Assembly: GCA_017468395.1 (NCBI GenBank)
Contig: JAFUIR010000008.1
Coordinates: 5,980 to 69,979 of the forward strand
Origin: Lachnospiraceae bacterium
GTDB lineage: Bacteria > Bacillota > Clostridia > Lachnospirales > Lachnospiraceae
Reading direction: 5' to 3'
Length of the DNA stretch: 64,000 bases
The stretch's first letter is position 1. Each line of letters opens with the position of its first letter. Under the pieces are notes generated by a model, which saw only the letters and a program-made list of their open reading frames with translations, was not told where the DNA came from and searched no databases. A program made the translations under genes and the position numbers. Below are positions 12,032 through 64,000 of the stretch, piece after piece.

Positions 12032-12065
12032 CCCGGGTTTTTGATGGAGAGGTGTTAAAGCAATT

Positions 12066-13571: not shown

Positions 13572-13579
13572 TAAATGTG

Positions 13580-13729: not shown

Positions 13730-13733
13730 AAAC

Positions 13734-14036: not shown

Positions 14037-14071
14037 TTGACATAACAAAGAAAAGGCTGTTTTTTAAAGTA

Positions 14072-14099
14072 ACAAAATCCTCTTCACTGACATAGCATA
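14072..14099 (+). promoter_or_regulatory. Sigma-K-like sporulation promoter
   Basis: AC (14072-73), 17-nt spacer, CATAGCATA; matches AC-N17-CATANNNTA. Confidence 0.45.
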
Positions 14100-14125
14100 G
14101 AGTAATCAATGTAGGAGAGTGAAAG

Positions 14126-14839: not shown

Positions 14840-14844
14840 AAAGC

Positions 14845-14883
14845 AGGGGCGGTTACATTTATTGTGTCGCCCCTATCTTTTTT
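14845..14883 (+). terminator. Intrinsic terminator
   Basis: AGGGGCGG...TCGCCCCT followed by a T run. Confidence 0.75.
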
Positions 14884-14938
14884 GCGCAGATACTGGTAAA
14901 ATAATAGGGGTTTAAAATAACGTGAAAAGGTGATAGGG

Positions 14939-15790: not shown

Positions 15791-15791
15791 A

Positions 15792-17537: not shown

Positions 17538-17575
17538 ATGAAATAGGACAAGTGAAACAGAAAGGCACTTATTAT

Positions 17576-29981: not shown

Positions 29982-30650
29982 TTAATGGGATTTTCGGCTT
30001 TTATTTAATTGCAGACGTTCTTTTATCGTAATATATCTGTCTAAGCCAATTACTTTTGCATTCAGTTTACATCCGTAAACGGTACTTCCATTTTCCAGTT
30101 TGTAATTTCTGACAATAATTCCCGTCAAATGAAATGTATAGTTTTCGTTTCGCTCCTGTATGTAATCCGTAAGAACTACGTGGGCAATAGCGCCGGGCTT
30201 AAATTCTCTTGCCGTGGCAGGAAGAATAAATGAAAAACCGGTGACACTGACGTCTTTAATAGTTGTGTCAAGGGCTGTGTTGTTTACCCCTATCTGGACG
30301 GAAGAGTAAAGTCCGAGAAAACAACGGAAAGCGCCTCGCCTGTTAAATTCTTTGCTGGGTCCGAGTGTGGAGATAAAATAGCAGAAATTTCCTGAATCGG
30401 ACTTTAATGTTTGAACTGTCACATTATAAAAAATGTGTGGCTTTGCATCATCAAAAGCCACAATTAAATGGGTTAAAATACCCGATGCCTTAAAGGAGAG
30501 AACTTTTTCATCCTTCATAATAGCATTAGTGTAAATACCATGTTTTTTGGGAACAACCTCCATAATTGTCAAAGGAAATTCCAATTGTTCGGAATTAATT
30601 ACTATTTGGAGAGTAAGTTTCTGCCCCATGACTAATTCTTCAATACGCAT
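29982..30650 (-). CDS. PilZ-domain c-di-GMP receptor (YcgR/DgrA-like architecture)
   Basis: RRGAFR (RxxxR) and DVSVTG (DxSxxG). Confidence 0.85.
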   Translation of the reverse strand: MRIEELVMGQKLTLQIVINSEQLEFPLTIMEVVPKKHGIYTNAIMKDEKVLSFKASGILTHLIVAFDDAKPHIFYNVTVQTLKSDSGNFCYFISTLGPSKEFNRRGAFRCFLGLYSSVQIGVNNTALDTTIKDVSVTGFSFILPATAREFKPGAIAHVVLTDYIQERNENYTFHLTGIIVRNYKLENGSTVYGCKLNAKVIGLDRYITIKERLQLNKSRKSH

Positions 30651-30794
30651 AAATACCATACCTTTTCTAAACTCTAGATATAGAATACTTGATAATTAGC
30701 CGTTGGTCAATTAAATTTGTAGAGATTACATGAATTTAACAAAAATTTTACGTATTTTTTGTAGTAAGTGTTGATAAGAAAAGCGGACCAAATA

Positions 30795-30836: not shown

Positions 30837-32828
30837 TTATTTTTCATTACGGAATTGATTAGGTGTAATGCCATATTCTTTTTTGAATACACGGTTGAAA
30901 TGTTCTACACTTTCGTATCCTACATTTTCAGCAATGGATTCAATTTTCTGGCTGGTTTCTTTCAATAAACGGCAGGCTTTTTTTAAACGGGCATTTTTTA
31001 CTGCGTCTTGGAAAGTCATGCCGGACTTATCTTTAATATATTTGGAAAGATAAGTTTTGGAAAGATTGAAATGCTCGGCAAGTTCCTCTAAAGTAACATT
31101 TTTATAGTCAGACTGGATGTAATTCATAATATCCACGATGCGCTCTTCGCGTCCTTCAGATACATTCTCGCTCTGGGCAAGTTTGTTAGCAGCGGATACG
31201 AGAGCAGCGATGGAACTCTTAATAATATCCTCGTCTACGCCGACGCCCCAGAAAAGTTTTCCGTCTTTTTTGATGCCCACATAAGAAGCCGCTTTGGAGT
31301 GTGAACCTGTGGAAATAGCATGCTCTTCATAAATGGAAAGTTCGTAGGTAATGCCAAAATAGGTTTTAATGGCATTGCTGACTGCATCCAGACGTCCGTT
31401 ACCGCCAGCGGCAATAGTACGTTTTTCGCCGGACTGCTCAATGATTACCTCTGCCTGAATACCGTCCACTTGTTTGAAGTGACATTCAGGGATGCCAAAT
31501 ACATCGTGCTGATTAATGTATGTTTCTTCAAAAATCTGATAAATATCTGCAGGAGCCAATTCCTGATGGCGGTGGTCGGAAACACCTTTTACAAGGTAGC
31601 CAACTTCTTCACGCATTTTGTCGGGAAGAGTGAAGCCAAAGTTTTGTTTCAGGATAAAGGCAATGCCGCCCTTACCGGACTGGCTGTTAATGCGGATAAC
31701 ATCGGATTCGTATTCTCTGCCAAGATCCTGAGGATCGATAGGAAGATAGGGTACATCCCATCTTTCGCCGCTCTTGCCTTCGTTTCTCCAAGCCATACCT
31801 TTGGAAATGGCATCCTGATGGGAACCGGAGAAAGCAGTGAATACCAGATCACCGGCATAAGGTGCTCTTTCATATACTCTCATGCGGGTCAGATTTTCAT
31901 ATGTTTCACGGATTTTGGCAATGTTGGAAAAATCAAGTTGGGGATCTACGCCATGGCAAACCATGTTCATTGCTACGGTGATAATGTCTACGTTACCGGT
32001 TCTTTCACCGTTTCCGAAAAGAGTACCCTCGATACGGTCTGCGCCGGCAAGTACGCCGAATTCTGCGTCACTGACGCCGCAGCCCCTGTCGTTGTGAGGA
32101 TGGACACTGATGGAAACAGCGTCGCGATATTTCAGGTTTTTATGTATATACTCCACCTGACAGGCGAATACATGAGGCATAGCCACCTGAACAGTGGTGG
32201 GAATATTGATGATGACTTTGTTATCCGGAGTGGGCTGCCATACGTCCAAAACAGCGTTACAAACTTCCAAAGCATAGTCTACTTCTGTGCCGGGGAAACT
32301 TTCCGGACTATATTCAAAGGTAAAGTTACCGTCGGTTTCATCAGCAAGTTTCTTTAAAAGTTTTGCCCCATCAATAGCCAACTGTTTTACTTCTTCTTTG
32401 GATTTTTTAAATACCTGTTCTCTCTGTGCCACGGAAGTAGAGTTGTAAAGGTGAACAATGGCATGGGGTGCACCTTCCAGAGCTTCAAAAGTTCTCTTAA
32501 TAATATGTTCTCTGGCCTGAGTTAAAACCTGAATGGTTACATCTGCAGGAATCATATTCCGCTCAATGAGTGCACGTACAAAATTATATTCAGTTTCGGA
32601 AGAAGCAGGGAAGCCTACTTCAATTTCCTTGAAGCCGATATCTACCAGCATTTGGAAAAACTCCAGTTTTTCTTCCAAACTCATGGGCTCGATTAATGCC
32701 TGATTTCCGTCGCGAAGGTCTACGCTGCACCAGATAGGAGCCTTGTCGATGGTTTCTTTCTGAACCCAGTCATAGGTTACAACAGGCGGCATAAAATAAG
32801 GTTTCACATACTTTTCTTTGATATTCAT
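30837..32828 (-). CDS. leuA: 2-isopropylmalate synthase (LeuA2 type) fused to a C-terminal AraC HTH domain
   Basis: [28 protein letters not shown], intact regulatory domain, then in frame [11 protein letters not shown]...[33 protein letters not shown] before ATG at 32828. Confidence 0.95.
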
Positions 32829-32841
32829 ATTACCCTCCATT

Positions 32842-33125
32842 AAAAAAGTCCCTACAAAAATGTAAACTAACATTTTTATAGAGACGCAAACTACGTTTAC
32901 GCGGTACCACTCTATTTCGTGATGGTCATCACGCTCTCATCGGCACTTATATGCCTAAGCCCTTTTACGGCGGCAAGTCCGTCTGTACTTACTGGGATAT
33001 CCAAACACCGGAAATCCGTTGGGCCAGCAGCTCCAAGGCCAGTTCACCATTTACATCTGACTGCCTTGCACCAACCGGCAGTTCTCTGTTGTCCAGCAAA
33101 TCGCTACTATTCCTCTTCAACGCAT
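32842..33125 (-). ncRNA. T-box riboswitch, Leu (CUG specifier)
   Basis: Minus strand: AGUA motif, AGAGA...GGUG distal loop, GAA-CUG specifier (33040-33042), T-box AGAGUGGUACCGCG, terminator GUCUCUAUAAAAAUG/CAUUUUUGUAGGGAC plus U run. Confidence 0.9.
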
Positions 33126-40089: not shown

Positions 40090-41607
40090 CTATTCAAAAT
40101 ACTTCATGGGGTCAACCGCAACATTATCTACGAAGACTCCAAAGGAAAGGTTTGGTCCGGTTGCCATGCCTGTGGCACCTACATGACCGATAATAGTTCC
40201 GGCAGATACTTCATCTCCTGCGGAAACCAGAACATCTTGCAAGTGACCGTAAATGACAAGGGTATCGTCTGCACCTGCAACGGAGATGTAGATGCAGTTA
40301 CCGTTATGGGGGCTATAAAGGGTCTCAGTAACAATACCTGCTACTGCGGAATAAACATCGTCCCCTTTTTCACCAGCAATATTAATGTGATCCACAGTTT
40401 TGTTTTCGCCGGTAACAGGATGGACACGGGTACCGAAGGTACTGGAAATGGTGGAACTTTCTGTAGGCCAAGTCCATAAATCTATCTGTATAGCGTCGGT
40501 ATTCTTGTCTGTGCCGGTAACAGGATTGGCCACAGGGGGATTTTCTGCTTCGGTATTCGCAGGTATCTCGGTGGCAACAGCATCTGCAATTTCTGTGCTG
40601 TCGGTGTTTTGCTGAGATTGTGCCCTATTACTGTCATCCGGTTCGGCAGCATTTGCTGATGTCAGGAAACAAGTGCCGATGCACAAAATCAGTGCAAAGG
40701 CAGCAATGCCGCCAAACAGCGTAAACTTTTTAGGTTTCATAATGGCTATAATCCTTTCTTCAATTGTGTTTTTGCTAAAACTATTGAAGAGAAGCGTAGG
40801 AACAGACCGTTGCTCCTCCATGCTGACAAGGGTTCGGGCATAACCGGTCCTGGATTCTGTGCCGGATTTTCTTACCACAGCCTCGTCACAGGATAGTTCT
40901 AAGTCCCGGTTGAAAAGAAAATACATAATCCAAACCAAAGGATTGAACCAGTGGAGGCAGAGGGTGATAATCATGAGTAATTTTGCCACCGGGTCAAAAC
41001 GGCGGATGTGAATGTACTCATGCAGGAAAATATAATTTAGTTGCTCCCTATTATCTAAATCTACTGTCTTTGGCAGCAAAATCACAGGGCGGATAAAGCC
41101 ATACGTCAGAGGGGATGAAATAAGGTCTGACCGGCGGATGCTGATTTCACGCCTTGCGGGGTGTTCCCTTAGCCACTTCTCTGTATAGTTCGTAGAAACA
41201 GGTAAGGAGGTTTTGTAATTTCTAAGGCATGTTATGTAACATATTGCAAAGAAGACCGCAAAGAACATAAATCCCACAAACCATGTAATTTCCCAAGGAA
41301 AAGTGTTATTACCGGCATTTGTTACCGGGGCTGTATCGTGGAAACCCATGGTTTCGAAAGGTAACAAAGGCAGCGCAGTTGCGAGCGGGGACTCTGTGAT
41401 AACGTCCTGCACTTTTTCATTTCTGCCAAAGAGTGAGTACACGCTAAAGGCTGAGGGGATAGAAAAAGGCAGTATCAAACGGACCAGTGCAATGCCCCAT
41501 AGAGAAAGGAAAAATCCTTTGGGAAAGCGGTTAATGAACAGCGTCCGAATGAGCGCAATTACCGCAATGAGTACTGCGCCGGACAAACTCATTTGTAATA
41601 AATTCAT
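40090..41607 (-). CDS. BlaR1/MecR1-type M56 metallopeptidase receptor with a C-terminal degenerate M23/LytM domain
   Basis: SPLTYG, HEYIH (HExxH), HWFNPLVW, ELSCD; then TM, linker and an M23 fold with VDHIN and GPNLSF. Confidence 0.9.
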   Translation of the reverse strand: MNLLQMSLSGAVLIAVIALIRTLFINRFPKGFFLSLWGIALVRLILPFSIPSAFSVYSLFGRNEKVQDVITESPLATALPLLPFETMGFHDTAPVTNAGNNTFPWEITWFVGFMFFAVFFAICYITCLRNYKTSLPVSTNYTEKWLREHPARREISIRRSDLISSPLTYGFIRPVILLPKTVDLDNREQLNYIFLHEYIHIRRFDPVAKLLMIITLCLHWFNPLVWIMYFLFNRDLELSCDEAVVRKSGTESRTGYARTLVSMEEQRSVPTLLFNSFSKNTIEERIIAIMKPKKFTLFGGIAAFALILCIGTCFLTSANAAEPDDSNRAQSQQNTDSTEIADAVATEIPANTEAENPPVANPVTGTDKNTDAIQIDLWTWPTESSTISSTFGTRVHPVTGENKTVDHINIAGEKGDDVYSAVAGIVTETLYSPHNGNCIYISVAGADDTLVIYGHLQDVLVSAGDEVSAGTIIGHVGATGMATGPNLSFGVFVDNVAVDPMKYFE

Positions 41608-41617
41608 ACCGCTCACC

Positions 41618-44048: not shown

Positions 44049-44144
44049 GTCTGGGAAAAAAGTGGGTGTCAAAGAGAAAGAAAGTATGTTACAATAAAAA
44101 GGAAACTAAAATAATTCATGAGATAAGTGAAAAATGGTGATTGG

Positions 44145-46424
44145 ATGAAGATATTATTAGCAACCATATTAACCGTGGCATTAGTTGTAATAGGCATATG
44201 TATTTTTAAAACCTACAAGGAGAAGCATAGACTGGCGAAGATTGTCAGAAATATTTTGCTGACAGGGCTTTTGATTGTATTGTTTAATCTGGTGTCTTTG
44301 CTGACAAGGTTTGAACCGGTCTGTCTTGTGGCTTACAGTGCTTATTTTGTGGCTTCGGATTGGTTGCTATATTTTTTGTTGCAATTTTCACTGGAATATA
44401 TCGGCAATGATTTTGAGAAGCATGTAAAGAAGAAATATATGTGTTTGCTCCTGTTGGCGGATTCGGCAAATATTCTTCTGAATAATGTGTTTGAGCATCT
44501 TTACACTTTGAAACATGTCAGTCTTTTTGGCGGGGAAAGTTACTACGAACTGGTTGTTTACTGGCCTTTTGCGGTACATTATTTTATCATTCTCATGGTG
44601 GCTGCTTTTTGTCTTATCAGCCTGTTTTACGGAGCCTTAAAAGCACCGGTGTTCTACCGGAAAAAATACATGACTATTGCGGTCATTATGGTAGTACTTA
44701 TAGTTTTATATTTCATTACGTTCAAATCGGCAATTGACGTTTCCGTAATCGGTTACGTTATAGAAGGAATATGTATTTATTACTGTGCCTTTGTATATAC
44801 ACCCCAGAGGTTGTTGCAAAAGACTCTGTTCCAAGTGACGCAGGATATGTCTGTTGCTTTGTTTGTGATGGACATAGAGGGCAAAAATTTGTATAGCAAT
44901 AAATATGCGGAAGAATTGTTCGATACGGAAAGTCCTCTTGTGAATAAAGAGGGTATCACACTGGAACAGTGGTGCCGTGATGCTTACATGAATCAAGAGG
45001 AAGAATTTACAAAGCAGCAGACTTTTTATCGCGGCGATGAAGAACTGATTTTAAAAATACAGTTACAGAGAATGGTAGACGCCCACAAGCAACTGCAGGG
45101 CGGATATTTCGTGGTGCAGGACCGCACGGAAGAAATTATTGCATTGAGAAAAGAACGGTATCTGGCTACCCATGACAGTTTGACCGGTTTATACAATAAA
45201 CAGCGGTTTTATGAAAAGTGTGAAAAGTATATTAACAGGCATGCCGACAAAGAGTTGCTGATGATTTGTACGGATATCAAAGAATTTAAGATGATTAATG
45301 ATTTCCTGGGAACTAAAACGGGAGATCTTGTGCTACAAAATATTGCTATTATGTTGAAAGAACAGGTAACCAAGGCGATTTACTACGGACGCCTTGGAAA
45401 TGATGTTTTCAGTATATTGATGGCGAAAGAAGACTTTAGCGAAGCACTTTTTGCAAAAGAAGAGCAGGGAGCATATTTCTCGGGAATGACGAGAGATGTA
45501 TCATTCCCTATCATTAATTATATCGGTGTTTACGAGATTACGGAGCGCACACTGCCGGTTTCTGTAATGTGTGACCGTGCAAGGATGGCGATTGCAAAGA
45601 TTAAAGGCGATTATCACAAGCGTATTTCTTATTATGATAATGTGATGCGTGATACTATTTTGCATGAACAGGAATTGATTAGTGACTTGAATACTGCCAT
45701 TTCGGATGGACAACTGAAAATGTATCTTCAGCCCCAGACATCTGTAAGCGGTGAACTTCTGGGAGCGGAGGCGTTGGTGCGTTGGATACATCCGGAAAAA
45801 GGTTTTATCATGCCGGGAGATTTTATTCCCGTTTTTGAGAAAAACGGACTGATTTCCGATGTGGACAGGTATATATGGGAGGTTGCCTGCAAACAACTTC
45901 GCAAATGGAAAGAGGAAGGTCGGGAAGATTTGTATATCTCGGTAAATATTTCTCCCAGAGACTTCTATTTCCTGAACATTTATCAGATATTTACGGAATT
46001 GGTGGAAAAGTATGATATTGCTCCCCAGAATATTAAACTGGAGATTACGGAAACGGCTATTGTAATGGATTTCAAACGTCAGATGGAATTGATTAGCAGA
46101 CTGCGCCGCACGGGATTTGTGGTAGAGATGGATGACTTTGGAAGCGGCTATTCCTCTTTGAATATGCTAAAAGATATTCATGTAGACGTGCTGAAAATTG
46201 ATATGGCGTTCCTGAAAAAGGCCGAAGATGAGGAACGCAGTAAAAAGATTTTGCAAATGATTATCAGTCTTTCCAAAGAACTTGGAATGCCCGTGATTAC
46301 GGAAGGTGTTGAAAATGCGGAGCAGGCAAAGTTCTTGTCGGAAATGGGATGTGAAATGTTCCAGGGATACTATTTTGCAAAACCTATGACAGTGGAAGAA
46401 TTTGAAAACAGATATTTGAGATAA
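44145..46424 (+). CDS. Membrane sensor + PAS-like + degenerate GGDEF + EAL; probable c-di-GMP phosphodiesterase
   Basis: About 7 TMs; HDSLTGLYN; GNDVF at the GGDEF site; EALVRW, DDFGSGYSS, EGVE. Confidence 0.9.
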   Translation: MKILLATILTVALVVIGICIFKTYKEKHRLAKIVRNILLTGLLIVLFNLVSLLTRFEPVCLVAYSAYFVASDWLLYFLLQFSLEYIGNDFEKHVKKKYMCLLLLADSANILLNNVFEHLYTLKHVSLFGGESYYELVVYWPFAVHYFIILMVAAFCLISLFYGALKAPVFYRKKYMTIAVIMVVLIVLYFITFKSAIDVSVIGYVIEGICIYYCAFVYTPQRLLQKTLFQVTQDMSVALFVMDIEGKNLYSNKYAEELFDTESPLVNKEGITLEQWCRDAYMNQEEEFTKQQTFYRGDEELILKIQLQRMVDAHKQLQGGYFVVQDRTEEIIALRKERYLATHDSLTGLYNKQRFYEKCEKYINRHADKELLMICTDIKEFKMINDFLGTKTGDLVLQNIAIMLKEQVTKAIYYGRLGNDVFSILMAKEDFSEALFAKEEQGAYFSGMTRDVSFPIINYIGVYEITERTLPVSVMCDRARMAIAKIKGDYHKRISYYDNVMRDTILHEQELISDLNTAISDGQLKMYLQPQTSVSGELLGAEALVRWIHPEKGFIMPGDFIPVFEKNGLISDVDRYIWEVACKQLRKWKEEGREDLYISVNISPRDFYFLNIYQIFTELVEKYDIAPQNIKLEITETAIVMDFKRQMELISRLRRTGFVVEMDDFGSGYSSLNMLKDIHVDVLKIDMAFLKKAEDEERSKKILQMIISLSKELGMPVITEGVENAEQAKFLSEMGCEMFQGYYFAKPMTVEEFENRYLR

Positions 46425-47418: not shown

Positions 47419-47790
47419 ATGGAGCAGTTTAAATTGGGAGAAATGGAGCAACGGTTGGCGGATTTGATTTGGGGGCACGAGCCGCTCAGTTCGGGGGAAC
47501 TTGTAAAATTATGTGAAGGAGCTTTTGACTGGAAGAGGACTACGACTTACACCATGCTCAAGAGACTTTGCGAGAGAAATATTTTTGCGAACGAAAACGG
47601 TACAGTGGTGGCGTTGATGTCCAAGGAGGAATTTCAGGCTGCCAGAGGGGAACAGTTTATTAATGATAATTTTGAGGGCTCTCTGCCACAGTTTTTGGCG
47701 GCCTTTTCCCGCAGAAAAAAATTGGGGGAAAAAGAAATTCTTGAACTGAAACGATTGATTGATGAATATGAGGAGGGGGACAATGATTGA
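47419..47790 (+). CDS. BlaI/MecI/CopY family repressor
   Basis: LGEMEQRLADLIW, WKRTTTYTMLKRL, FEGSLPQFLAAF. Confidence 0.93.
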   Translation: MEQFKLGEMEQRLADLIWGHEPLSSGELVKLCEGAFDWKRTTTYTMLKRLCERNIFANENGTVVALMSKEEFQAARGEQFINDNFEGSLPQFLAAFSRRKKLGEKEILELKRLIDEYEEGDND

Positions 47791-50350
47791 AGGGGCTTTT
47801 ATAAGTATTGTGAATATGAGCCTGACGGCAACAGTGGCAATCTTGGCGGTTTTATTAGCGAGAACGATGCTGCGCAGAGCGCCGAAGATTTTTTCCTACA
47901 TACTGTGGGTGGTGGTACTGTTCCGTCTGGTTTGTCCGGTTTCTTTTACCGCGGACTTTTCCATTTATAGTTTGTTGCCTGTTTCAGTTTTGCAACAAAC
48001 CGGAGAAATCCGTCAGGAAAGTGTGAACAGACCTTATGGGGATAATATGGATTTTGTGCAAATCATAGATGGACTGTCTGTACAAGAAGAGCCGCATCTA
48101 AATACTATAGGTAGTGATGCAGCGGAAAATTTAGTGACCGGCAAAGAGGCACAAAGCCAGATGCTGAGTGCGCAGGAAAACCCCAAGAGTCCTGCAGAGT
48201 TGTTTATGCAAATCGGAAGTATTGTTTGGCTTTCAGGCGTGGGGATTTTGGTATTATATAGTTTTGTGACATTTGTGTCACTTAAGAAAAGCCTTAGGAA
48301 CGCAGTACATGTGCGGGACAATGTATATACAACATACAACCTGATAACTCCCTTTGTATGCGGTGTTATCCGTCCACGGATTTATTTGCCCGCAGGACTT
48401 AGGGAAGAGGAAAAAAGATACATTTTGCTGCACGAGCAGATACATATCAGAAGAGGCGACCATCTGGTGAAACTTATGAGTTTCGCGGCGCTTTGCCTGC
48501 ATTGGTTTAATCCGTTTGCATGGCTGGCTTTTTTCCTTAGTGGGAAAGACATGGAGATGTCCTGTGACGAGGCTGTTATCCGAAAACTGGGTAGCGGTGT
48601 GAAAAAAGAGTATTCGTCCTCTCTTTTGGCACTGGCTACGGGCAGGCGGATTATCAGCGGTGTACCCTTGGCCTTTGGCGAGGGTGACACCGGCTCCCGC
48701 ATTAAGAATGTGCTCCGATATAAAAAACCGGCGGTGATTCTGGTGGGCGTGGCAACAGTGCTACTTATCGTGATGTGCGGTATGCTTTTGGCGAATCCCG
48801 CTGCAAAGGATAACCAAGACCTTAAATGGGGTCAGACCGCCATGTATGGGGTAATTGTGGAAGTGGATGTGCTTGGCGACGGAACGCTTCAACAGGTAGT
48901 GAGTATTCCCGGAAACGGCGAAGTAGAGATACCAAAGGCAAAAGAAGTGGTGTCTTATGTGGATAAGAAAAATTTTCGGGGCTTAGAGACAGGAGATGTG
49001 GTCCGCATTGTGTTCTCCTGGGGGAAAGATACTTCTATTATGGAGACTTATCCCGGTAGATTTTCTGTAGAAGCAGAAAAAATTGAGGTGTACGCAAAAG
49101 GCTACAGTCTGGCTTATCAAGGCCAAAATAAATATCATTTTACCATACCTGCATCAGAAATTCCCGGCTGGGAAGAAGCGGTAGCGGGAGATATGTTGAC
49201 CATTTATGATAAAGCTTACCTTTCCGGCGAGGAGTCGGAGGCTTTGGTAGAGGCGAAGGTGCTGACCGTCACAGAAGCGGAGGAATCCGGTGATGCAGCC
49301 TTTATAGCAGAGGTGGCTATGCAGGATATGGGTAAGGTGTTACAGGCCTTCCCTTACGGCGTGACCTATTCTGTCGGCAAAATACCTTGGTATGAGGCTT
49401 CCAACGGCACCTACTTTCTGGAGATATTGGAGTATTCCAAAGAAGACAAAACCATTGAGAAATATAGGTGGTTAAATAGGGATGATAAAGAGGAGAGAGA
49501 AATAAGTACGGATGAGCCCATTTACATTGGGGACTGTCATATTGGTCTGTATGAAGGAATACAGGAAATAGAGAATGTTTACTATGAAAAGAATCTGACC
49601 AAATTCGTCCGCTGTATGGAACTTGGCTCCGAGGAAGTACCTAAAATGTGCTTAATCGATATTTGGGACGGAAAGGTAGACCATGTTGGGCTGATGGAAC
49701 CCTATGCGGGCGTGGGAATCCGGACCGGACAAGCAGCCTATAGAAATGTGGGTGCAGGAGAAGATACATGGTATGAAGATATTCGGCAGTTAGAAGGAGA
49801 AGATGTGCTGGATAAATATTATACACTTGCCCATACAGAAAGTTTGAATGTGGCTACAGAGCCCGGCGATGAACTGATAGAAGTTTATACCGGAAACATC
49901 GGAGACGGAGACAGCGGAGTGGTATTGTTTAAAGATGTGGATGGTAATCTGCTGCATGACCTTTCAGCCCATACCGCCAGAGCGGGTTGGAATAATATTT
50001 ATGTGGGCACCATAGGAAGTGAGACTTCCGGAAAATATGGTAAGGATACTTCTTTTATTATGATAGTCCATATTGAGAACCGGGATACTTATGGCGAATA
50101 TAGTTATGCATTATATAAACTGACAAAGGATGGAAAATCCTATATGGAAATGTCCTCCTTTACCTTCGGGGAACCCTATGAATATGATGAGGAATATTTT
50201 AAACAATGGGTAAATGGTTTGGAATATTATCTTGTTAACAGTCATTTGCTTCTCAGTACACAGGATGGAGAAGTCCGCACCGGTTGGGTAAATGATGTGG
50301 TAAGATACAATTATGAAACCCTCCGCCCTACGGGAGTGATAACAAAGTAA
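47783..50350 (+). CDS. BlaR1-type M56 receptor with a large non-penicillin-binding ectodomain
   Basis: HEQIH, HWFNPFAW, EMSCDE, RIKNVL, TM, then about 500 aa with no SxxK. Confidence 0.88.
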   Translation: MIEGAFISIVNMSLTATVAILAVLLARTMLRRAPKIFSYILWVVVLFRLVCPVSFTADFSIYSLLPVSVLQQTGEIRQESVNRPYGDNMDFVQIIDGLSVQEEPHLNTIGSDAAENLVTGKEAQSQMLSAQENPKSPAELFMQIGSIVWLSGVGILVLYSFVTFVSLKKSLRNAVHVRDNVYTTYNLITPFVCGVIRPRIYLPAGLREEEKRYILLHEQIHIRRGDHLVKLMSFAALCLHWFNPFAWLAFFLSGKDMEMSCDEAVIRKLGSGVKKEYSSSLLALATGRRIISGVPLAFGEGDTGSRIKNVLRYKKPAVILVGVATVLLIVMCGMLLANPAAKDNQDLKWGQTAMYGVIVEVDVLGDGTLQQVVSIPGNGEVEIPKAKEVVSYVDKKNFRGLETGDVVRIVFSWGKDTSIMETYPGRFSVEAEKIEVYAKGYSLAYQGQNKYHFTIPASEIPGWEEAVAGDMLTIYDKAYLSGEESEALVEAKVLTVTEAEESGDAAFIAEVAMQDMGKVLQAFPYGVTYSVGKIPWYEASNGTYFLEILEYSKEDKTIEKYRWLNRDDKEEREISTDEPIYIGDCHIGLYEGIQEIENVYYEKNLTKFVRCMELGSEEVPKMCLIDIWDGKVDHVGLMEPYAGVGIRTGQAAYRNVGAGEDTWYEDIRQLEGEDVLDKYYTLAHTESLNVATEPGDELIEVYTGNIGDGDSGVVLFKDVDGNLLHDLSAHTARAGWNNIYVGTIGSETSGKYGKDTSFIMIVHIENRDTYGEYSYALYKLTKDGKSYMEMSSFTFGEPYEYDEEYFKQWVNGLEYYLVNSHLLLSTQDGEVRTGWVNDVVRYNYETLRPTGVITK

Positions 50351-55889: not shown

Positions 55890-56477
55890 ATGAATGTTGC
55901 AGGGCAGATGCAATTTAAAAATGCAGTAGAGCGGATACTTCATGTGCCGGGAAATTATACCGGCGGTATTTTGGAGATGGCGCTGGTTTGCGATTATCAT
56001 ATGCCGCAAGAACAGCTGTGCCAAATTTCCGCAGAATTGATAGATTGCCTGAAAAGGAATGGAGAAGTGTTCCGCAATGTGAGATTAAATCTGGTAAAGT
56101 GGGTAGATGATTCGCGGATTATCAAAGAAATCGTGCCCATGACTTATGTGCGGATGGGAAGGGTTTTTGAGGATTATGCCCTTTTATGTAGTAATTCAGG
56201 CGTGGTAAAAGGTGCGCTGGACATGGTAGGTCTCTCTGAAGTTGTGGAGGAAATTGTAAAAAGTCCTAAAACCATGCAGGAATTAACGAGGCAGTTAAAA
56301 CTTTTTTATGCCAGAAGCAAAGTGATTATTGTCATCACCGATGGCAGTTACGAAGTGGGAGATAAAGGAAAAACAAGAGAGAATTTACATCCTTTTTTAT
56401 ACCGTAAACTTCTCTTTTGCCAGAATGAAAAAGTAATTACGGGTATGGAGTGGATGAGAAATGAATGTAATATTTGA
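55890..56477 (+). CDS. Hypothetical protein, possibly a degenerate vWA-like fold
   Basis: EMALVCD strand and IIVITDG motif. Confidence 0.6.
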   Translation: MNVAGQMQFKNAVERILHVPGNYTGGILEMALVCDYHMPQEQLCQISAELIDCLKRNGEVFRNVRLNLVKWVDDSRIIKEIVPMTYVRMGRVFEDYALLCSNSGVVKGALDMVGLSEVVEEIVKSPKTMQELTRQLKLFYARSKVIIVITDGSYEVGDKGKTRENLHPFLYRKLLFCQNEKVITGMEWMRNECNI

Positions 56478-57976: not shown

Positions 57977-58005
57977 GAAGGAAAGGTTTCGGCCTTTCCT
58001 TTTTT
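57977..58005 (+). terminator. Intrinsic terminator
   Basis: GAAGGAAAGG-loop-CCTTTCCTT followed by a T run. Confidence 0.85.
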
Positions 58006-58152
58006 GCTTATATTGCTTAAGAATTTATTAAAAGGTACAATATCTTGTATTTTTTCTACATTTTTCCACTATATTTTTTTGACATGATATGTACTGTTGT
58101 GATAAACTTAGATAAAGTATGGGTTGGTGTCGGCAGTAAGGAGTATGCAGTC

Positions 58153-58722
58153 ATGGGGTTGTTTGATAACGATATTAAAATTGAAGCACTCAAAACCTTA
58201 ATTACACGGAAAAAGTATGAAGAAGCCGTGGAATTGGCAGATGAAATCAGATGGGGACGCGTAAAAGATGTACGGCTGCTTTGTACCATCAGTGATCTCT
58301 ATAAAAAGAGCAGACGATTTGAGGACAGTAGAGATTTGCTTCTTGTGGCAAAAAAGAGACATCCCGAGGAAAAGGCTATTGTGTCGTCTTTATGTGAACT
58401 TTGTATTAGATTGGGCGATATCGAGGACGCGGAAGAATATTACAAAGAATTTATGGATATAGCACCGGATGACAGCGGTTCTTATGTGCTGAAATATAAG
58501 TTGTCAGAAGCAAAAGAAGCGGGTGCGGAAGAGAAAATTACTATATTGGAAGAATTGAAAGAAAAGAAACCTACGGCAAGATGGCTGTATGAATTGGCGA
58601 AAATGTACGGACAATCAGGAATGACTGAAAAATGTGTGACACAATGTAATGAACTTGTGGAGCAATTTGGCGAGAGTAAGTATGCGGCCAGGGCGGTGGA
58701 GTTAAAAAATAAAGTAGGTTAG
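58153..58722 (+). CDS. Stand-alone TPR-like helical protein, paralog of the N-terminus of the next gene
   Basis: RBS AGGAG before ATG 58153; ungapped alignment to residues 1-189 of the next protein; promoter TTGACA-N18-TAAACT at 58079-58108. Confidence 0.85.
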   Translation: MGLFDNDIKIEALKTLITRKKYEEAVELADEIRWGRVKDVRLLCTISDLYKKSRRFEDSRDLLLVAKKRHPEEKAIVSSLCELCIRLGDIEDAEEYYKEFMDIAPDDSGSYVLKYKLSEAKEAGAEEKITILEELKEKKPTARWLYELAKMYGQSGMTEKCVTQCNELVEQFGESKYAARAVELKNKVG

Positions 58723-58749
58723 TTTCAGCAGATGAGGGAGCGAACAACC

Positions 58750-61464
58750 GTGGATAAGTACGAATATAAGATAAGAACGGAAGAAATAAAGACTTTGATT
58801 GCAAAGGGAAAATATGCGGAAGCGGCAGATGTTGCGGACGGAATTGATTGGCGCCGTGTGAAAAGCGTGATGATGCTTTGTACTATCAGTGATCTTTATA
58901 AAATGAACAGAAGATTTGAAGACAGCAAAGATTTGCTTCTTTTGGCATACGACAGACATCCGGGCGGAAGGTCTATCGTTTATTCGTTGTGTGAATTATC
59001 CATTAAAATGGGAGAATTTGTGCAGGCGGTGGAATATTACAAAGAGTTTGTGCAAGTGGCGCCCAGAGACAACGGACGCTATGTTTTACAGTATAAATTA
59101 TATGAAGCGCAGGATGTCAGTTTGGAAGAGCGCATAGCGGTTTTAGAAGAACTGAAATCCAGAGAATATCTGGAAAAGTGGGCTTATGAACTGGCTTACT
59201 TGTATCACAGAGTGGGTCTTGCTACCAAATGTGTAGAAGAGTGTGATGAACTGATTTTATGGTTCGGCAAAGGTAAATATGTTATGAAGTCTATGGAACT
59301 GAAAATGCTTCATGAGCCTTTGACGCCGGCCCAGCAGGAAAAGTATGACATGGCGAAAGGTTTGCTCCGTGGCATGTCAGAAGAGGAAGAGACTCCATCC
59401 CAGGAGAATGATGAAAACGCTAATTTGATGGATGCACCTACTTTGGAAATGCCCGCAAAAGAGTTGGATATCCAAGTAAAGGTTATGGGTGTGGGCCAGT
59501 ATGACACCATCAATATGCAAAAGGAACTTGCAGAGCAGTTGAAAGAACTGTGGGAGGGTACGGAAGCCGGAGAAGAAAACAGTCAAGAAGATAGTGAAGA
59601 AAACGGCGAAGTAAGTCAGGATACCAAAGTGTTTTTGACTAGAGAAACCGGCGAATTGTCGCTTCCTGATGAAGAAATGCAGGAAGAGGAAATTTCTCGG
59701 GAAGAAGAACCTCAGCAAAAGGAAGAAGTTCAAGAGGAAGAAGTTCAGGAAGAAGAACTGCAGGAAGAAATCCCGCAGGAAGAAATCCCACAGGAACAAA
59801 ACTTACAAGAAGAACGGCCGGAAACAGAAGAAAGCAAAGTGGAAGTGTTCTTTGGGGAAACTGCGGAACTGGACACCACTGCCAGTCAGGTAATGGAGGC
59901 GATGAAAAATGAAACCTCCGGTCAGTTGGCTTTTGGCATAGAAGCCGATTCCGGCGACATAAAAGAAATTACGGTGGAAACAACAACGGATGAAACACCG
60001 TCAGAAACTGTGGCGACAGAGGAGAAACCCCGAAATACACATCGTGCATACGATAAAATACTTGGAATGGAGTATGACGGTCAGATTAGCATGTTGCTTC
60101 CGGAATCTGAGCAGATTGAAAAGCAGATCACCGGTCAGATAAAGTTGGAAGACGTTCTTATCGAATGGGAAAGAATGAAAAAAGAAAGTGAACAGAAACG
60201 CAGAGAGGCAGTGGAGCAGAGAGTGCTTCAGCAGACAGGCGCCATGTTTACTGAGTTTGAGGCTTCCATCAGGGATGGCTTACTGGAACAACTGGAAAGA
60301 GAAAAAAATGCAGACGAAGATGCGGAACCCGAATCTGAAGTTGCAGAAGAATTATACGAAGCCGAAGAACCGGAAGAAATCGAAGAGCCGGAAGAAGTCG
60401 AAGAGCCGGAAGAAGTCGAAGAGCCGGAAGAAACTGAAGAAGTCGAAGAACTGGAAGAGATAGAGGAACCGGAAGAAGTCGAAGAGCCGGAAGAGATAGA
60501 GGAACCGGAAGAAGTCGAAGAACCGGAAGAAACCGAAGCGCCGGAAGAAACCGAAGAGCCGGAAGAAACCGAAGAGCCGGAAGAAACTGAAGAAGTCGAA
60601 GAACTGGAAGAGATAGAGGAACCGGAAGAAGTCGAAGAGCCGGAAGAAACCCAAGAGCCGGAAGAAACCCAAGGCGCCGGTCAGGTTCCCGTTGAACTGC
60701 AGAAAAAAGAAAAGACCCTACGTCCACTGTCCCCGGAAGAACTGGAATTATTCAGTGCTTATACTCACAGTCCGAAGAGCAAAGAACAGATTATCAATGC
60801 TATCGATACTATTTCCATGGCATCTTACACCGGAAACGTGATTATTACCGGTGATGAAAATATGGATACTTTGACCTTGGCAAAAAATCTGGTAAAAGAG
60901 GTGCAAAATACAGACAGCAATTTCTCCGGAAAAATTGCCAAAATATCCGGTGCATCTTTGAACCAGAAAGATGTGGAAGAAACTTTGGATAAGATGGCCA
61001 ACGGCGCATTAATTGTACAGCGGGCGGCAGGTATCAATAAAGACACGGTAACTAAGTTGCACAAAGTTTTGGAACAGGAAGAAAGAGGCGTTATTGTTCT
61101 TTTAATTGACACAAAGAAAACAATGACTCATTTCCTGAAAGAAAATCCTATGCTGAAAGAAAGTTTTACCATCCGTGTGGACGTGGAAGCCCTGAGCAAT
61201 GATGCACTGGTAGAATATGGCAAAAAGTATGCCCGTGAGTTGGAATACAGCATAGATGACATGGGCGTGTTGGCCCTTCATACCGTGATTTCTGACCGGC
61301 AGACCAGTGAACACGCGGTAACAGCCCAGGAGGTACAGGAAATCATCGATGATGCAATCCGCAGCGCAAACAGAAAGACCATAGCACATTTCTTTGACCT
61401 CCTTATTGCAAAGCGATATGATGATGAAGATATGATTATTCTGCGGGAAAAAGACTTTATGTAA
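58750..61464 (+). CDS. TPR domain + long acidic disordered region + degenerate SpoVK/CbbX-type AAA+ domain
   Basis: GTG start with GAGGGAG RBS; C-terminus aligns by eye to the SpoVK-like fold with Walker A GDENMDT, Walker B LIVQR and NPMLKESF. Confidence 0.75.
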   Translation: MDKYEYKIRTEEIKTLIAKGKYAEAADVADGIDWRRVKSVMMLCTISDLYKMNRRFEDSKDLLLLAYDRHPGGRSIVYSLCELSIKMGEFVQAVEYYKEFVQVAPRDNGRYVLQYKLYEAQDVSLEERIAVLEELKSREYLEKWAYELAYLYHRVGLATKCVEECDELILWFGKGKYVMKSMELKMLHEPLTPAQQEKYDMAKGLLRGMSEEEETPSQENDENANLMDAPTLEMPAKELDIQVKVMGVGQYDTINMQKELAEQLKELWEGTEAGEENSQEDSEENGEVSQDTKVFLTRETGELSLPDEEMQEEEISREEEPQQKEEVQEEEVQEEELQEEIPQEEIPQEQNLQEERPETEESKVEVFFGETAELDTTASQVMEAMKNETSGQLAFGIEADSGDIKEITVETTTDETPSETVATEEKPRNTHRAYDKILGMEYDGQISMLLPESEQIEKQITGQIKLEDVLIEWERMKKESEQKRREAVEQRVLQQTGAMFTEFEASIRDGLLEQLEREKNADEDAEPESEVAEELYEAEEPEEIEEPEEVEEPEEVEEPEETEEVEELEEIEEPEEVEEPEEIEEPEEVEEPEETEAPEETEEPEETEEPEETEEVEELEEIEEPEEVEEPEETQEPEETQGAGQVPVELQKKEKTLRPLSPEELELFSAYTHSPKSKEQIINAIDTISMASYTGNVIITGDENMDTLTLAKNLVKEVQNTDSNFSGKIAKISGASLNQKDVEETLDKMANGALIVQRAAGINKDTVTKLHKVLEQEERGVIVLLIDTKKTMTHFLKENPMLKESFTIRVDVEALSNDALVEYGKKYARELEYSIDDMGVLALHTVISDRQTSEHAVTAQEVQEIIDDAIRSANRKTIAHFFDLLIAKRYDDEDMIILREKDFM
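60361..60672 (+). repeat. Coding tandem repeat (9/18-nt units, EEPEE[V/I/T]) with an exact 77-nt higher-order duplication
   Basis: 60418-60494 is identical to 60571-60647. Confidence 0.9.
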
Positions 61465-61501: not shown

Positions 61502-61528
61502 TAAGAAAATTCATAATATAACCGAAAT
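61502..61528 (+). promoter_or_regulatory. Sigma28 (FliA/SigD)-like promoter
   Basis: TAAG-N15-ACCGAAAT versus consensus TAAA-N15-GCCGATAA. Confidence 0.6.
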
Positions 61529-61580
61529 AGAAGGTGAACAGGACGTTCATCTTCTATTTTTATTTCTTGGAGACAGGTGT

Positions 61581-64000
61581 ATGAGAATTAGTTTTGAAGA
61601 ACACACACACAATGTCGACCGGGCTACAAATGAATATAACCGCAACCGGACGGAAAAAACGAAGCGTACCGATTGCTATGCATTAGACATTTCTGGCACA
61701 GTTATGGATAACACTGCTTACGGGGTTCAGGGAAGAACCGCAGAGGACGTGATGCGTGAAGCAGCTGCAACAGATGCAGATGTACTTCGTGACTATATGA
61801 CAGTTATGTCTAATTCTATGTCTGAGGAGGATTTTGCGAAACTTCAAAAAGAAGGCTGTTCTCCTATGGACACGGATATTGAAGAAGTAGTTACCATTGT
61901 CGATAAAATAAAAGCTGAGCTTGCCAAAGCAGGTGTAGAGGTTGTAGGTTATACGGATACGTTGGATACAGAAACCTTGACAGAGATTGCAGGCAGTGAA
62001 ACCTATGCTCATGCCATAGAAAATGCTTTCCGAAAAGCGGATGTGCCCATGACGAAGGAAAATGTGACAGAAGCAGTAAATGCCGTGAATAAGGCAAAAG
62101 AATTGTCCGTTCCTACAGAGGGCGCAGAAAAGTATATGCTGGATAATCAGTTGGAACCTACCATTGATGATTTGTATCTGGCGGAATTTTCGGGGGCAGA
62201 CAGAAGTGCCAGACAGGCAAAAGGATATTATCGTGACGACACCGCCGGCTATTATGCCAAAAGAGCGGAAGCGGTGGATTTGGAAAGTTTAAAGGGCCAG
62301 ATAGAGCAGATTATTTTGCGGGAAGGTCTGGAATTAAATGAAGAAAATTTAAAGAATGCAGAATTTTTGCTGGAAAAGGGAATTCCCGTGACCGGCGAGA
62401 AAATAAGCCTTCTTGGAAGAATAAAAAGCACAAGGCTTCCGGCAGATGAAGATACTCTGTGGAAAGCGGTAGCAGCCGCACTGGCAGAGGGTAAACCGGC
62501 AGGAGATGCCAATCTTTATGACGGAAGAAGCGTCTATGAAAAAGCGGCATCCGCAGATAAAGATGTGGATGAACTGTTGGCACAGGCAGAAAGTTCCGGC
62601 AATGTGACCAGATACAGACAGTTGCAGGAAATCCGTCTGATGATGACGGTGGACGCCAATGTGAAACTTTTAAAGAGCGGTTTTTCCATTGATACGGGAA
62701 AATTGGAAGAACTGGTAGATGCCCTGAAGGATTTGGAGCAGAAGCAGGCGGAAAATCTCTTTGGTGCCTCTGCAAATCCCATATCCGATTATCAGTTATA
62801 TAAAGAGAGCGTTGCAAAGGCAGCAGCGTTGCCAGCAATGCCTGCGGACGTCATCGGCAAAGTGGCAGGACGTATTGCTAAGGTGGGTATTGATGCCCTG
62901 TATGAAGAGGGGCTGGCAATCCAGAAGTCCTATCAGGAGGCTCAGAAAAGTTACGAAGCCTTAATGACGGCACCCAGAAGAGACATGGGTGACAATATTC
63001 AGACTGCGTTCCGTAACGTAGATAATATTTTGGCAGACATGGGTCTTTCCTTAACAGAGGAAAATCGCAGGGCAGTGCGTATATTGGGATATAACAGCAC
63101 AGAAATTACGCCGGAGAATCTGGCGGATGTAAAAGCCGCAGACAGAAGCGTTCAGCGTGTGGTAGATAAATTGACTCCTGCCAAAGTTCTTCAGATGATT
63201 CGCGATGGTATGAATCCTTTGGAAACGAGTTTGGCGGATGTGGAAGCGTATTTGGACGGACAGGAAAGCTATGATGAAGAGGCACAAAAGTACAGCAAGT
63301 ATCTGTACAGTCTGGAAAAATCCGGAAAAATAACCGACAGTGAAAAAGAAAGTTACATCGGTATTTACCGTATGCTCAGACAGATTGAAAAATCTGACGG
63401 GGCAGTGATTGGCAGCCTTTTGGAAAGCGGAGCACAGATTACTTTTGCAAATCTTTTGTCAGCTGTCCGCAGTAGTAAAGTAAAAGGCATTGACGTTTCA
63501 GTGGACGATAACTTTGGGGGATTGGAAGCCTTAAATACGAGGGGAATTTCCATTACAGAGCAGATTGCGGCAGGTTACACCAAAGGTTTAAGAGAAAATC
63601 TGGAAAAAGAAATAACGGACAGTTCTTATAATAAAGTTCTTTTGGACGAAGTGAGAAAACTGAAACAGATTACCGATGGTGATTTGGATATGTTAAAACA
63701 GATGGAAATTCCTGTGACGGTAGACTATCTGTTAGCTACGTCCATGCTCCGCAGCGATAGGGGTAGCGCAGTGCGCAAGTTGTGGCAAAAGAGGGATGCG
63801 GTAGAAGAACTGCCCAAAGCCATGGAACATATCCGTCAGTGGGAAGAACAATTGACAGACCGCGATAGTGCGAAAGCATCTTATCAGGAATATGTAAAGC
63901 AACTTACCCAAATAGCGGAGGAACTGACTTTCTCTGCAGCAGATACATCCATCGATGTGCGGGAAATGCAACTTATTCACAAGCAATTACATGTAGCCGG
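61581..64000 (+). CDS. DUF6240-like large protein (often labelled FliK-like), runs off the window end (not in the ORF track)
   Basis: Hand translation MRISFEEH...YALDISGTVMDNTAYGVQGRTAEDVM...MTVMSNSMSEEDFAKLQKEG...IVDKIKAELAKAG; its absence from the ORF track fits a frame with no stop in the window. Confidence 0.75.
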   Translation, partial: MRISFEEHTHNVDRATNEYNRNRTEKTKRTDCYALDISGTVMDNTAYGVQGRTAEDVMREAAATDADVLRDYMTVMSNSMSEEDFAKLQKEGCSPMDTDIEEVVTIVDKIKAELAKAGVEVVGYTDTLDTETLTEIAGSETYAHAIENAFRKADVPMTKENVTEAVNAVNKAKELSVPTEGAEKYMLDNQLEPTIDDLYLAEFSGADRSARQAKGYYRDDTAGYYAKRAEAVDLESLKGQIEQIILREGLELNEENLKNAEFLLEKGIPVTGEKISLLGRIKSTRLPADEDTLWKAVAAALAEGKPAGDANLYDGRSVYEKAASADKDVDELLAQAESSGNVTRYRQLQEIRLMMTVDANVKLLKSGFSIDTGKLEELVDALKDLEQKQAENLFGASANPISDYQLYKESVAKAAALPAMPADVIGKVAGRIAKVGIDALYEEGLAIQKSYQEAQKSYEALMTAPRRDMGDNIQTAFRNVDNILADMGLSLTEENRRAVRILGYNSTEITPENLADVKAADRSVQRVVDKLTPAKVLQMIRDGMNPLETSLADVEAYLDGQESYDEEAQKYSKYLYSLEKSGKITDSEKESYIGIYRMLRQIEKSDGAVIGSLLESGAQITFANLLSAVRSSKVKGIDVSVDDNFGGLEALNTRGISITEQIAAGYTKGLRENLEKEITDSSYNKVLLDEVRKLKQITDGDLDMLKQMEIPVTVDYLLATSMLRSDRGSAVRKLWQKRDAVEELPKAMEHIRQWEEQLTDRDSAKASYQEYVKQLTQIAEELTFSAADTSIDVREMQLIHKQLHVA

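Follow-up and report, generated by a model that had tools for sequence, protein, structure and literature searches.

What becomes of an AAA+ protein that has kept the fold of an ATPase but not the residues with which such an enzyme binds and hydrolyzes ATP? This question is raised by one gene in a 64,000-nucleotide stretch of DNA from a Lachnospiraceae bacterium (assembly GCA_017468395.1, contig JAFUIR010000008.1, positions 5,980 to 69,979 of the forward strand), the whole of which was analyzed and is referred to as the window. The gene encodes a protein of 904 amino acids (aa), here named TPR-AAA, in which a tetratricopeptide repeat (TPR) module and a C-terminal AAA+ module are held apart by long acidic stretches. 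It belongs to a large and widespread but uncharacterized family, mainly of gut Lachnospiraceae, which forms a TPR-fused branch of the SpoVK/CbbX/EccA clade of AAA+ chaperones and is, judging from its catalytic positions, enzymatically dead. We give a probability of about one in two to the reading that the protein is a cytoplasmic, non-catalytic scaffold or adaptor, descended from a SpoVK/CbbX/EccA-type AAA+ chaperone and working without ATP. The gene and the parts of its product are given below by window position.

58750 to 61464, forward strand: the TPR-AAA gene, 904 aa, with a GTG start and a TAA stop
58750 to 59385, forward strand: TPR solenoid of 12 helices (residues 1-212), delimited from model confidence (97-98), Foldseek and the conservation profile
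59455 to 59550, forward strand: module mid1 (residues 236-267), consensus ELDIQVK..DVGxYNTINLQxELAE, conserved in 97 of 110 full-length representatives
60052 to 60306, forward strand: module mid2 (residues 435-519), a disordered, near-invariant DGQIS..P..EKQITGQ followed by a long helix (466-519)
60358 to 60673, forward strand: tandem DNA repeats with periods of 18, 117 and 153 nt (Tandem Repeats Finder), encoding the (E-E-P-E-E-x) tract of linker 3
60718 to 61461, forward strand: pseudo-AAA+ module (residues 657-904), made up of a bihelical hairpin, an alpha-beta-alpha core, a four-helix lid and a C-terminal tail
60850 to 60873, forward strand: P-loop remnant GDENMDTL (family consensus G-E-E-G-M-D-T-L), with Thr at the position of the Walker A Lys
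61009 to 61023, forward strand: Walker B remnant LIVQR, in place of hhhhDE
61144 to 61167, forward strand: Arg-finger remnant NPMLKESF, against NPGfRsRi in CbbX, both arginines being gone

Two AlphaFold2 models were built, one of the last 252 residues with 50 homologues and one of the full-length protein with 69 full-length representatives. The C-terminal domain shows a mean predicted local distance difference test score (pLDDT) of 85.5 when modeled alone, and residues 655-904 score above 90 in the full-length model. Its architecture is that of the AAA+ superfamily, with an alpha-beta-alpha P-loop core, the strand order 5-1-4-3-2 and a helical lid. When the domain was compared with the PDB by Foldseek, four CbbX chains ranked first (E from 2e-10 to 9e-10), with further matches to RuvB, spastin, RFC, p97 and ClpB at the same probability of 1.00 as for CbbX; the full-length model again returned CbbX first. 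A preliminary description of this locus, made from the letters of the DNA, had aligned the C-terminus by eye with SpoVK/CbbX-type AAA+ domains, and both the structural comparison and the NCBIfam matches given below agree with it.

The catalytic columns were counted in an alignment of the window protein and 110 full-length representatives (n = 111). The Walker A signature GxxGxGK[ST] is gone: the column of its Lys is occupied by T (79), A (7), S (6), I (5), V (4) and P (3), and Lys is found in 0 of the 111 sequences. The P-loop is instead filled with acidic residues, E or D702 in 95 of 111 sequences and D706 in 58 of 111, with E703 as a third. At Walker B, the Asp position is E in 60 sequences, Q in 38 and D in 3, and the Glu position is K in 51, G in 12, R in 11 and other residues in the remainder. 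The first Arg-finger column (803) is dispersed over K (21), A (20), E (14), L (12), S (7) and R (5), and column 805 over C (29), N (11), S (10), L (10), F (10) and V (9), with no Arg among these six commonest residues. The sensor-2 Arg is also lost, as the N-A-R of CbbX aligns with T-V-A in the family and with T-A-Q in the window. Pore loop 1, whose position was assigned from the AlphaFold2 secondary structure and general knowledge of AAA+ proteins, does not keep its aromatic-hydrophobic-Gly pattern, since no more than 6 of the 111 sequences are aromatic at any column from 734 to 745. The Walker A, Walker B and Arg-finger strings that had been called defective in the preliminary description were found exactly where it implied, and their loss is family-wide. 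Thus, every class of residue that is required to bind and hydrolyze ATP, to activate the adjoining subunit or to thread a substrate is replaced throughout the family, and the module is predicted to be ATPase-dead. Conservation of the module is now strongest in the lid and in the C-terminal tail KRYDxEDMIILxEKDF, in which R889, D891, E900, D902 and F903 are invariant among the full-length representatives (alignment A3). H844, Q851, T852, H855, T858, K876, H880 and Y890 also count among the conserved lid residues, along with R889 and D891.

The SpoVK-EccA-like clade and its synapomorphies have been defined in PMC11513918, where a bihelical hairpin preceding strand 1 is described. This hairpin is present in TPR-AAA, with helices 662-668 and 675-687 lying immediately before strand 697-701. 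The sensor-1 GY of the clade has been replaced (columns 787-788 are D in 99 and G in 12 sequences, and T in 71, S in 11, G in 6, N in 6, R in 5 and V in 3, respectively, with Tyr outside the six commonest residues), and the sensor-2 Arg of the clade is missing from the family. The clade Asn located four residues before the first Arg finger survives as N799 in the window and in 41 of 111 sequences, being His, Tyr or Thr elsewhere. With the hairpin kept, the sensor-1 GY and sensor-2 Arg lost and the Asn partly surviving, the family is therefore a degenerate offshoot from the SpoVK-EccA-like clade, outside the SpoVK, CbbX and EccA families proper. The C-terminus matches the NCBIfam models for SpoVK (E from 1e-10 to 1e-11), CbbX (1e-8) and EccA (1e-4), and among 51 family members, 50, 46 and 37 match these three top models, respectively, all at scores roughly ten-fold under the curated cut-offs. 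When the family profile was run against the PDB sequences, only CbbX (E 3e-4) and the EccA1 structure 9lur (E 5e-4) were significant.

The TPR module claimed for the N-terminus is supported by the full-length model, in which the 12-helix solenoid reaches a pLDDT of 97-98, and by Foldseek matches to an eight-repeat consensus TPR protein (CTPR, E 4e-7), the OGT TPR domain and the SPINDLY TPRs. It is the most conserved part of the family (residues 1-195, over which the listed representatives are about 62-83% identical to the window protein). Its Pfam TPR_2 score is sub-threshold at 14 bits, and a small paralogue encoded immediately upstream passes several TPR models (TPR_2 at 35.7 bits vs a cut-off of 27). 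Conservation along the alignment resolves four modules, namely the TPR module, mid1, mid2 and the pseudo-AAA+ module, with three linkers in between, and this four-module build is kept in 97 to 110 of the 110 full-length representatives.

Residues 215-256, 268-463 and 521-651, which add up to 369 residues or 41% of the protein, have a pLDDT below 50. Module mid1 has low pLDDT as well and lies inside the disordered region, its sole helix being short (256-265). In mid2, Q459, G462 and Q463 are invariant in the same alignment as the tail residues, and the long helix is predicted with a pLDDT of 75-81. Searches of the mid2 profile against the PDB and of mid2 members against Pfam gave nothing significant; RA_2 matched weakly in 15 of 22 members (best E 1e-3), at a level that is not interpretable. 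The linkers range from 3 to 412 residues among the representatives and keep their acidity (median Asp+Glu 23-35%), not their sequence. In the window, linker 3 is 56% Asp+Glu with a net charge of -73, and the whole protein has a pI of 4.24, an Asp+Glu content of 27% and a net charge of -150. The region between the TPR and AAA+ modules, described earlier as a Glu-rich linker of about 450 aa, is thus acidic and disordered as stated, but it is not merely a linker, as it holds the modules at 236-267 and 435-519. No transmembrane segment was found in a 19-residue Kyte-Doolittle scan of the protein (maximum 1.13), in agreement with the same description.

An exhaustive profile search of representatives placed at least 865 clusters (50% identity) in the family at E <=1e-30, with a typical length of 800-1380 aa, and a scan of one genome per species found it in at least 577 species genomes. 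The best 80 of these genome matches are mostly labelled Lachnospiraceae (Acetatifactor, Roseburia, Waltera), with a few labelled Clostridium sp., Bacillota bacterium or "bacterium" and one record each labelled Bacteroidaceae, Odoribacter and Gastranaerophilales. The label Butyrivibrio sp., from a metagenome-assembled genome, belongs to a more distant branch. It is evident that the protein is under strong purifying selection despite being non-catalytic. A pseudogene or a gene in decay was considered as well and rejected: at least 110 full-length representatives retain both the four modules and the invariant columns.

The family is unannotated. When a word-indexed database was searched for homologues of the C-terminal domain, of the TPR module and of a C-terminus from the Butyrivibrio-like branch, it gave only short pieces named "hypothetical protein", N- or C-terminal fragments of 215-436 aa (P0001-P0120, P0270-P0389). 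Runs of N or contig ends fall inside the acidic repeats of related loci (at 5800-6000 in L001 and about 5900 in L002); such breaks interrupt the gene and result in the fragment gene calls. No source names a function for the family, one fragment being mislabelled "TonB"; there is no Pfam family that covers the protein, and no paper describing the family was found in the searchable literature. In practical terms, acidic repeats break metagenome assemblies, so that most entries of the family in public databases are truncated. The family would add a widespread, catalytically dead branch to the SpoVK/CbbX/EccA clade, a group of "narrow-client" AAA+ chaperones that was defined recently, and it is a natural case in which to ask about the role of an AAA+ scaffold after the loss of its motor. 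Lachnospiraceae are among the most abundant butyrate producers of the gut and their cell biology is almost unstudied, and TPR-AAA is conserved in hundreds of their species.

The signals and genes on either side of the TPR-AAA gene are listed below.

57977 to 58002, forward strand: intrinsic terminator after rsmA (ksgA), 11-bp stem and T-run, the upstream boundary of the transcription unit
58079 to 58108, forward strand: sigma-A-type promoter with an extended -10 (TTGACA, 18 nt, TG-n-TAAACT)
58153 to 58722, forward strand: stand-alone TPR protein (189 aa) and tandem paralogue of the N-terminal TPRs of TPR-AAA
61502 to 61529, forward strand: sigma-28 (SigD)-like promoter of the DUF6240 gene (TAAG at 61502-61505, 16-nt spacer, CCGAAATA at 61522-61529)
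61524 to 61560, forward strand: strong intrinsic terminator, 16-bp stem and T-run, the end of the TPR-AAA transcription unit
61581 to 64000, forward strand: DUF6240 gene (Pfam PF19753, E 4.6e-120), running off the end of the window

The mechanical open reading frame (ORF) around the gene spans 58732-61464 on the forward strand and would encode 910 aa. The GTG at 58750, where the preliminary description has the gene begin, is a better start than 58732, because it is preceded by the ribosome-binding site GAGGGAGCG and the orthologous proteins open with MDKYEYK at the homologous codon. Among 76 related loci, the start codon is TTG in 59, GTG in 17 and ATG in 0, and a near-consensus sigma-A promoter (TTGACA...TRTGnTAAACT) stands 5′ of the orthologue in 73, the distance from the -10 to the start codon having a median of 79 nt. 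The gene is thus equipped with a weak start codon (TTG or GTG) and a housekeeping-type (sigma-A) promoter. We also noticed, in these 76 loci, a conserved ribosome-binding site (AGGGAGCG) ahead of the non-ATG starts, and a conserved AGTGGG-like motif in the leader of about 80 nt, just 3′ of the -10.

In the window, the family-conserved promoter stands 5′ of the small TPR paralogue and not directly ahead of the big gene. The paralogue shares 53% identity over 182 aa with the TPR module of the big protein (E 6e-71). Outside the window it occurs in L003 and L004 alone, the window's two closest relatives, and it sits between the conserved promoter and the big gene. Because the promoter is in front of the paralogue, the two genes probably form one operon. 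Two exact metatranscriptome contigs cross the junction between them (58597-58964) and suggest that transcription runs across it; this is weak evidence, consisting of a few short contigs in one gut metatranscriptome, which is insufficient to define an operon. The small protein could compete with the big one for the same partner.

We then compared the neighborhoods of 85 related loci (L001-L085), which all belong to a single bacterial family. In 76 of the 85 loci, the gene directly downstream of the TPR-AAA gene, in the same direction and with a median gap of about 16 nt, is glgB, which encodes the glycogen branching enzyme, and this linkage is also found in the divergent Butyrivibrio-like clade. 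DUF6240 is directly downstream in six loci and in the window, at a gap of about 100-180 nt, and three loci have neither gene at this position; in the window, glgB is not found there. The tightest genomic link of the gene among its relatives is therefore with glgB, not with flagellar genes.

The preliminary description had pointed out a sigma-28-like promoter for the next gene and taken it as a flagellar hint. The promoter is present and conserved: a site of the form TAA[AG], N14-17, CCGA[AT]A is located 5′ of DUF6240 in 50 of 69 loci, with a variable spacer, and every listed match reads CCGAAA at the -10. It belongs to the DUF6240 gene and is outside the TPR-AAA unit. In the related loci, DUF6240 is followed by flagellin and FliS. 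DUF6240, an uncharacterized Pfam family for which no literature was found, is probably a flagellar-regulon protein, given this conserved promoter and the flagellin and FliS genes that come next. The hint for TPR-AAA itself is weakened by its own sigma-A promoter (73/76 loci), by the terminator at 61524-61560, by glgB as the next gene in 76/85 loci and by two loci, L006 and L077, in which the TPR-AAA gene is kept with neither DUF6240 nor flagellin adjoining. In L006 a Tad-pilus cluster comes directly after the TPR-AAA gene (11600-18000), and in L077 glgB is followed by unrelated genes. A Tad-type pilus cluster, made up of a prepilin peptidase, a TadZ-like protein, a CpaF-type ATPase and T2SSF, was also observed just past the flagellin-FliS block in L083 and L084 (17700-20800). 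In the window, the sigma-28-like -10 overlaps the 5′ arm of the terminator at 61524-61560, a compact terminator/promoter layout (61522-61560); owing to this overlap, transcripts that start at the promoter would lack the hairpin and read through.

A scaffold or adaptor could have arisen and could work as follows. The ancestor would have been a substrate-specific AAA+ chaperone of the SpoVK/CbbX/EccA type in which the use of ATP was lost. The TPR module may still bind a conserved client or partner, as the N-terminal domains of the AAA+ clade do; in PMC11513918 these domains, EccA TPRs included, are described as recruiting specific substrates. The dead AAA+ module would serve as a docking or oligomerization surface rather than as a motor, and the acidic linkers may be flexible charged spacers that present mid1 and mid2 to further partners. 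The protein would be made constitutively at a low level. As a general statement, "non-catalytic scaffold or adaptor" is the most reasonable one, and the "polar organiser" of the preliminary description is speculation. Several points weigh against the scaffold or adaptor reading. Pseudo-ATPases sometimes still bind nucleotide or another ligand, and the glycine pattern of the P-loop is partly kept here (G701 in 107/111 and G704 in 80/111); together with the highly conserved polar residues of the lid, these glycines could mean ligand sensing, not pure scaffolding. In most relatives the gene is tightly linked with glgB, which speaks for a specific role in metabolism and less for a general scaffold. 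Furthermore, "scaffold" is what would be proposed by default for any dead enzyme that carries TPRs.

Of the more specific versions, a glycogen-linked factor has the best genomic support among the relatives. Such a factor would tether or regulate GlgB or organize glycogen (granulose) granules, with a lid that may sense a sugar phosphate. Besides the co-directional glgB at about 16 nt in 76 of the 85 loci, Butyrivibrio-like clade included, the peak of AAA conservation in the lid and C-terminal tail fits this idea, as does the fact that the CbbX lid binds ribulose 1,5-bisphosphate (RuBP) in a clade that includes carbohydrate-metabolism chaperones (PMC11513918). Nevertheless, the TPR-AAA gene is intact in the window and in six other loci where glgB is not at this position, no glycogen-binding domain was detected in the protein, and operon inheritance alone could explain the linkage, because all the loci come from one bacterial family; on balance we hold a role in glycogen metabolism to be doubtful. 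In an alternative that looks to sporulation or cell-envelope synthesis, TPR-AAA would be an adaptor or regulator that pairs with an active SpoVK-type ATPase encoded elsewhere in the genome. Its dead AAA+ module would assemble into the active ring or dock on it, and the protein would deliver TPR-bound clients to the ring or inhibit it. SpoVK is the closest hidden Markov model in 50 of 51 members (best E 2e-14). Mixed rings that include dead AAA+ subunits are well known, as with the clamp-loader delta and delta-prime subunits, and the holA and holB models match a few members weakly. With its Arg finger lost, TPR-AAA could not activate a neighboring subunit; its promoter is of the sigma-A type and not of a sporulation-sigma type, and no active paralogue was found among the scanned window ORFs or in the flanks of the few annotated related loci, all of which leaves such a partnership unlikely.

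Could the protein mark a place in the cell? By analogy with HubP and FimV, to which the preliminary description had likened it, TPR-AAA might be an acidic landmark that organizes the cell pole or the placement of flagella. It does combine polyacidic repeats with a TPR module, most related loci carry the DUF6240-flagellin-FliS block with its sigma-28-like promoter just downstream, and the organism of the window has chemotaxis and cyclic di-GMP (c-di-GMP) genes. The likeness to HubP/FimV is, however, one of acidic composition alone; the protein carries neither a membrane anchor nor a LysM or FimV domain; a sigma-A promoter of its own serves the gene, and a terminator insulates it from DUF6240; glgB usually stands between the two; and the gene is kept in L006 and L077, whose loci have no flagellin block. 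We regard this landmark as quite unlikely. Very unlikely, too, is a polyanionic chaperone or sink for very basic proteins, ribosomal or nucleoid, in the manner of eukaryotic chaperones with TPRs and acidic tracts; client binding would then lie in the acidic tracts and specificity in the TPR module. The net charge of -150 and linkers that conserve acidic composition, not sequence, would suit it, and so would the place that the gene keeps throughout the family, directly behind rsmA, a gene of ribosome biogenesis (and behind tatD), but a terminator and a separate promoter lie between rsmA and the TPR-AAA gene, other genes often intervene there, and the idea is purely an analogy. That the AAA+ domain might still be an active NTPase through non-canonical residues is hardly credible: P-loop glycines and a Thr are partly conserved and the Walker B Asp position is Glu in 60 of 111 sequences, but against this stand the Walker A Lys at 0/111, a P-loop filled with E/D702, E703 and D706, and the absence of the Arg finger and the sensor-2 Arg. 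A bolder reading can also be conceived, in which TPR-AAA would be a "fossil chaperone", a cytoskeletal or organizing hub of a kind not recognized before in Gram-positive gut anaerobes. A specific subcellular assembly would form around the dead AAA+ ring or lid, the TPR solenoid and the polyanionic arms. It might be, e.g., a body of glycogen (granulose), a pole that bears flagella or Tad pili, or a condensate, and the protein would then resemble HubP and PopZ in function while being unrelated to them in evolution; we consider this improbable.

About 44 ORFs of the window, neighbors included, were scanned. Among them we found a methyl-accepting chemotaxis protein (MCP), a PilZ protein and a GGDEF-EAL protein, and there were no type VII secretion system (T7SS), sporulation or flagellar structural genes among these ORFs. 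The MCP, PilZ and 7TM-GGDEF-EAL proteins indicate a motile organism with c-di-GMP signaling. These and other genes of the window are the following.

3546 to 5588, reverse strand: MCP chemoreceptor
29982 to 30659, reverse strand: PilZ-domain protein
30837 to 32873, reverse strand: isopropylmalate-synthase-like protein (HMGL-like, IPMS_D2, LeuA_dimer) with a fused C-terminal AraC-type helix-turn-helix, an unusual enzyme-regulator fusion
40090 to 41616, reverse strand, and 47759 to 50350, forward strand: two BlaR1-type M56 peptidase sensors, one with a fused M23 peptidase domain
44127 to 46424, forward strand: 7TM-GGDEF-EAL protein
55890 to 56477, forward strand: 195-aa ORF with no Pfam match, upstream of a HAD hydrolase gene

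The last of these, the 195-aa ORF, is also found in about a dozen related loci, 5′ of the HAD/rsmA genes.

Among known systems, SpoVK (TIGR02881), a sporulation AAA+ chaperone of Bacillota that promotes MurG function (PMC11513918), is the best-matching curated model; it comes from the same phylum and the bihelical hairpin is common to both. The match begins past Walker B and takes in the rest of the core and the complete lid (model positions 126-261), and TPR-AAA scores 41-44 bits against an equivalog cut-off of 423. SpoVK, an active ATPase whose synthesis is limited to sporulation, has about 320 aa and a short N-terminal domain rich in beta structure, whereas TPR-AAA has 904 aa, a TPR module, an acidic intrinsically disordered region and a sigma-A-type promoter, and its ATPase appears to be dead. 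CbbX, the red-type Rubisco activase, is both the best structural match and the best sequence match in the PDB, and a conserved helical lid is found in both proteins. TPR-AAA is only about 17% identical to it, however, and lacks the Walker A Lys, the Walker B Glu, the Arg finger, the pore-loop aromatic and any Rubisco context.

The preliminary description had recognized the architecture of EccA, the T7SS AAA+ chaperone of Actinobacteria. The order of domains is indeed the same, with TPRs at the N-terminus and an AAA+ module of the CbbX/SpoVK type behind them. The EccA model (TIGR03922) matches the AAA part only, so that homology of the TPR module to that of EccA is undetected, and TPR-AAA scores 21 bits against a cut-off of 467, outside the equivalog. 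It also differs from EccA in the acidic disordered region of about 450 residues with two extra modules between the domains, in the loss of the catalytic motifs and in its Lachnospiraceae host, and among the scanned ORFs of the window there was neither FtsK/EssC nor WXG100 nor any other T7SS domain. HubP and FimV resemble TPR-AAA in composition only, that is, in having extended acidic repeats as well as a TPR-type module. They are membrane-anchored, with a periplasmic LysM and a C-terminal TPR/FimV motif, whereas TPR-AAA has no transmembrane segment, and neither LysM nor FimV domains were detected in it by the Pfam and NCBIfam searches.

Other non-catalytic AAA+ modules are a further point of comparison. 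LAP1 and LULL1 activate torsins. They do so by donating an Arg finger, and TPR-AAA has none to donate. Beyond the shared fold, there is no homology between these modules and TPR-AAA, the holA and holB matches being weak and confined to a few members. Like TPR-AAA, however, both the clamp-loader delta and delta-prime subunits and LAP1/LULL1 have kept the AAA+ fold after losing the nucleotide site, and in them it serves binding and assembly.

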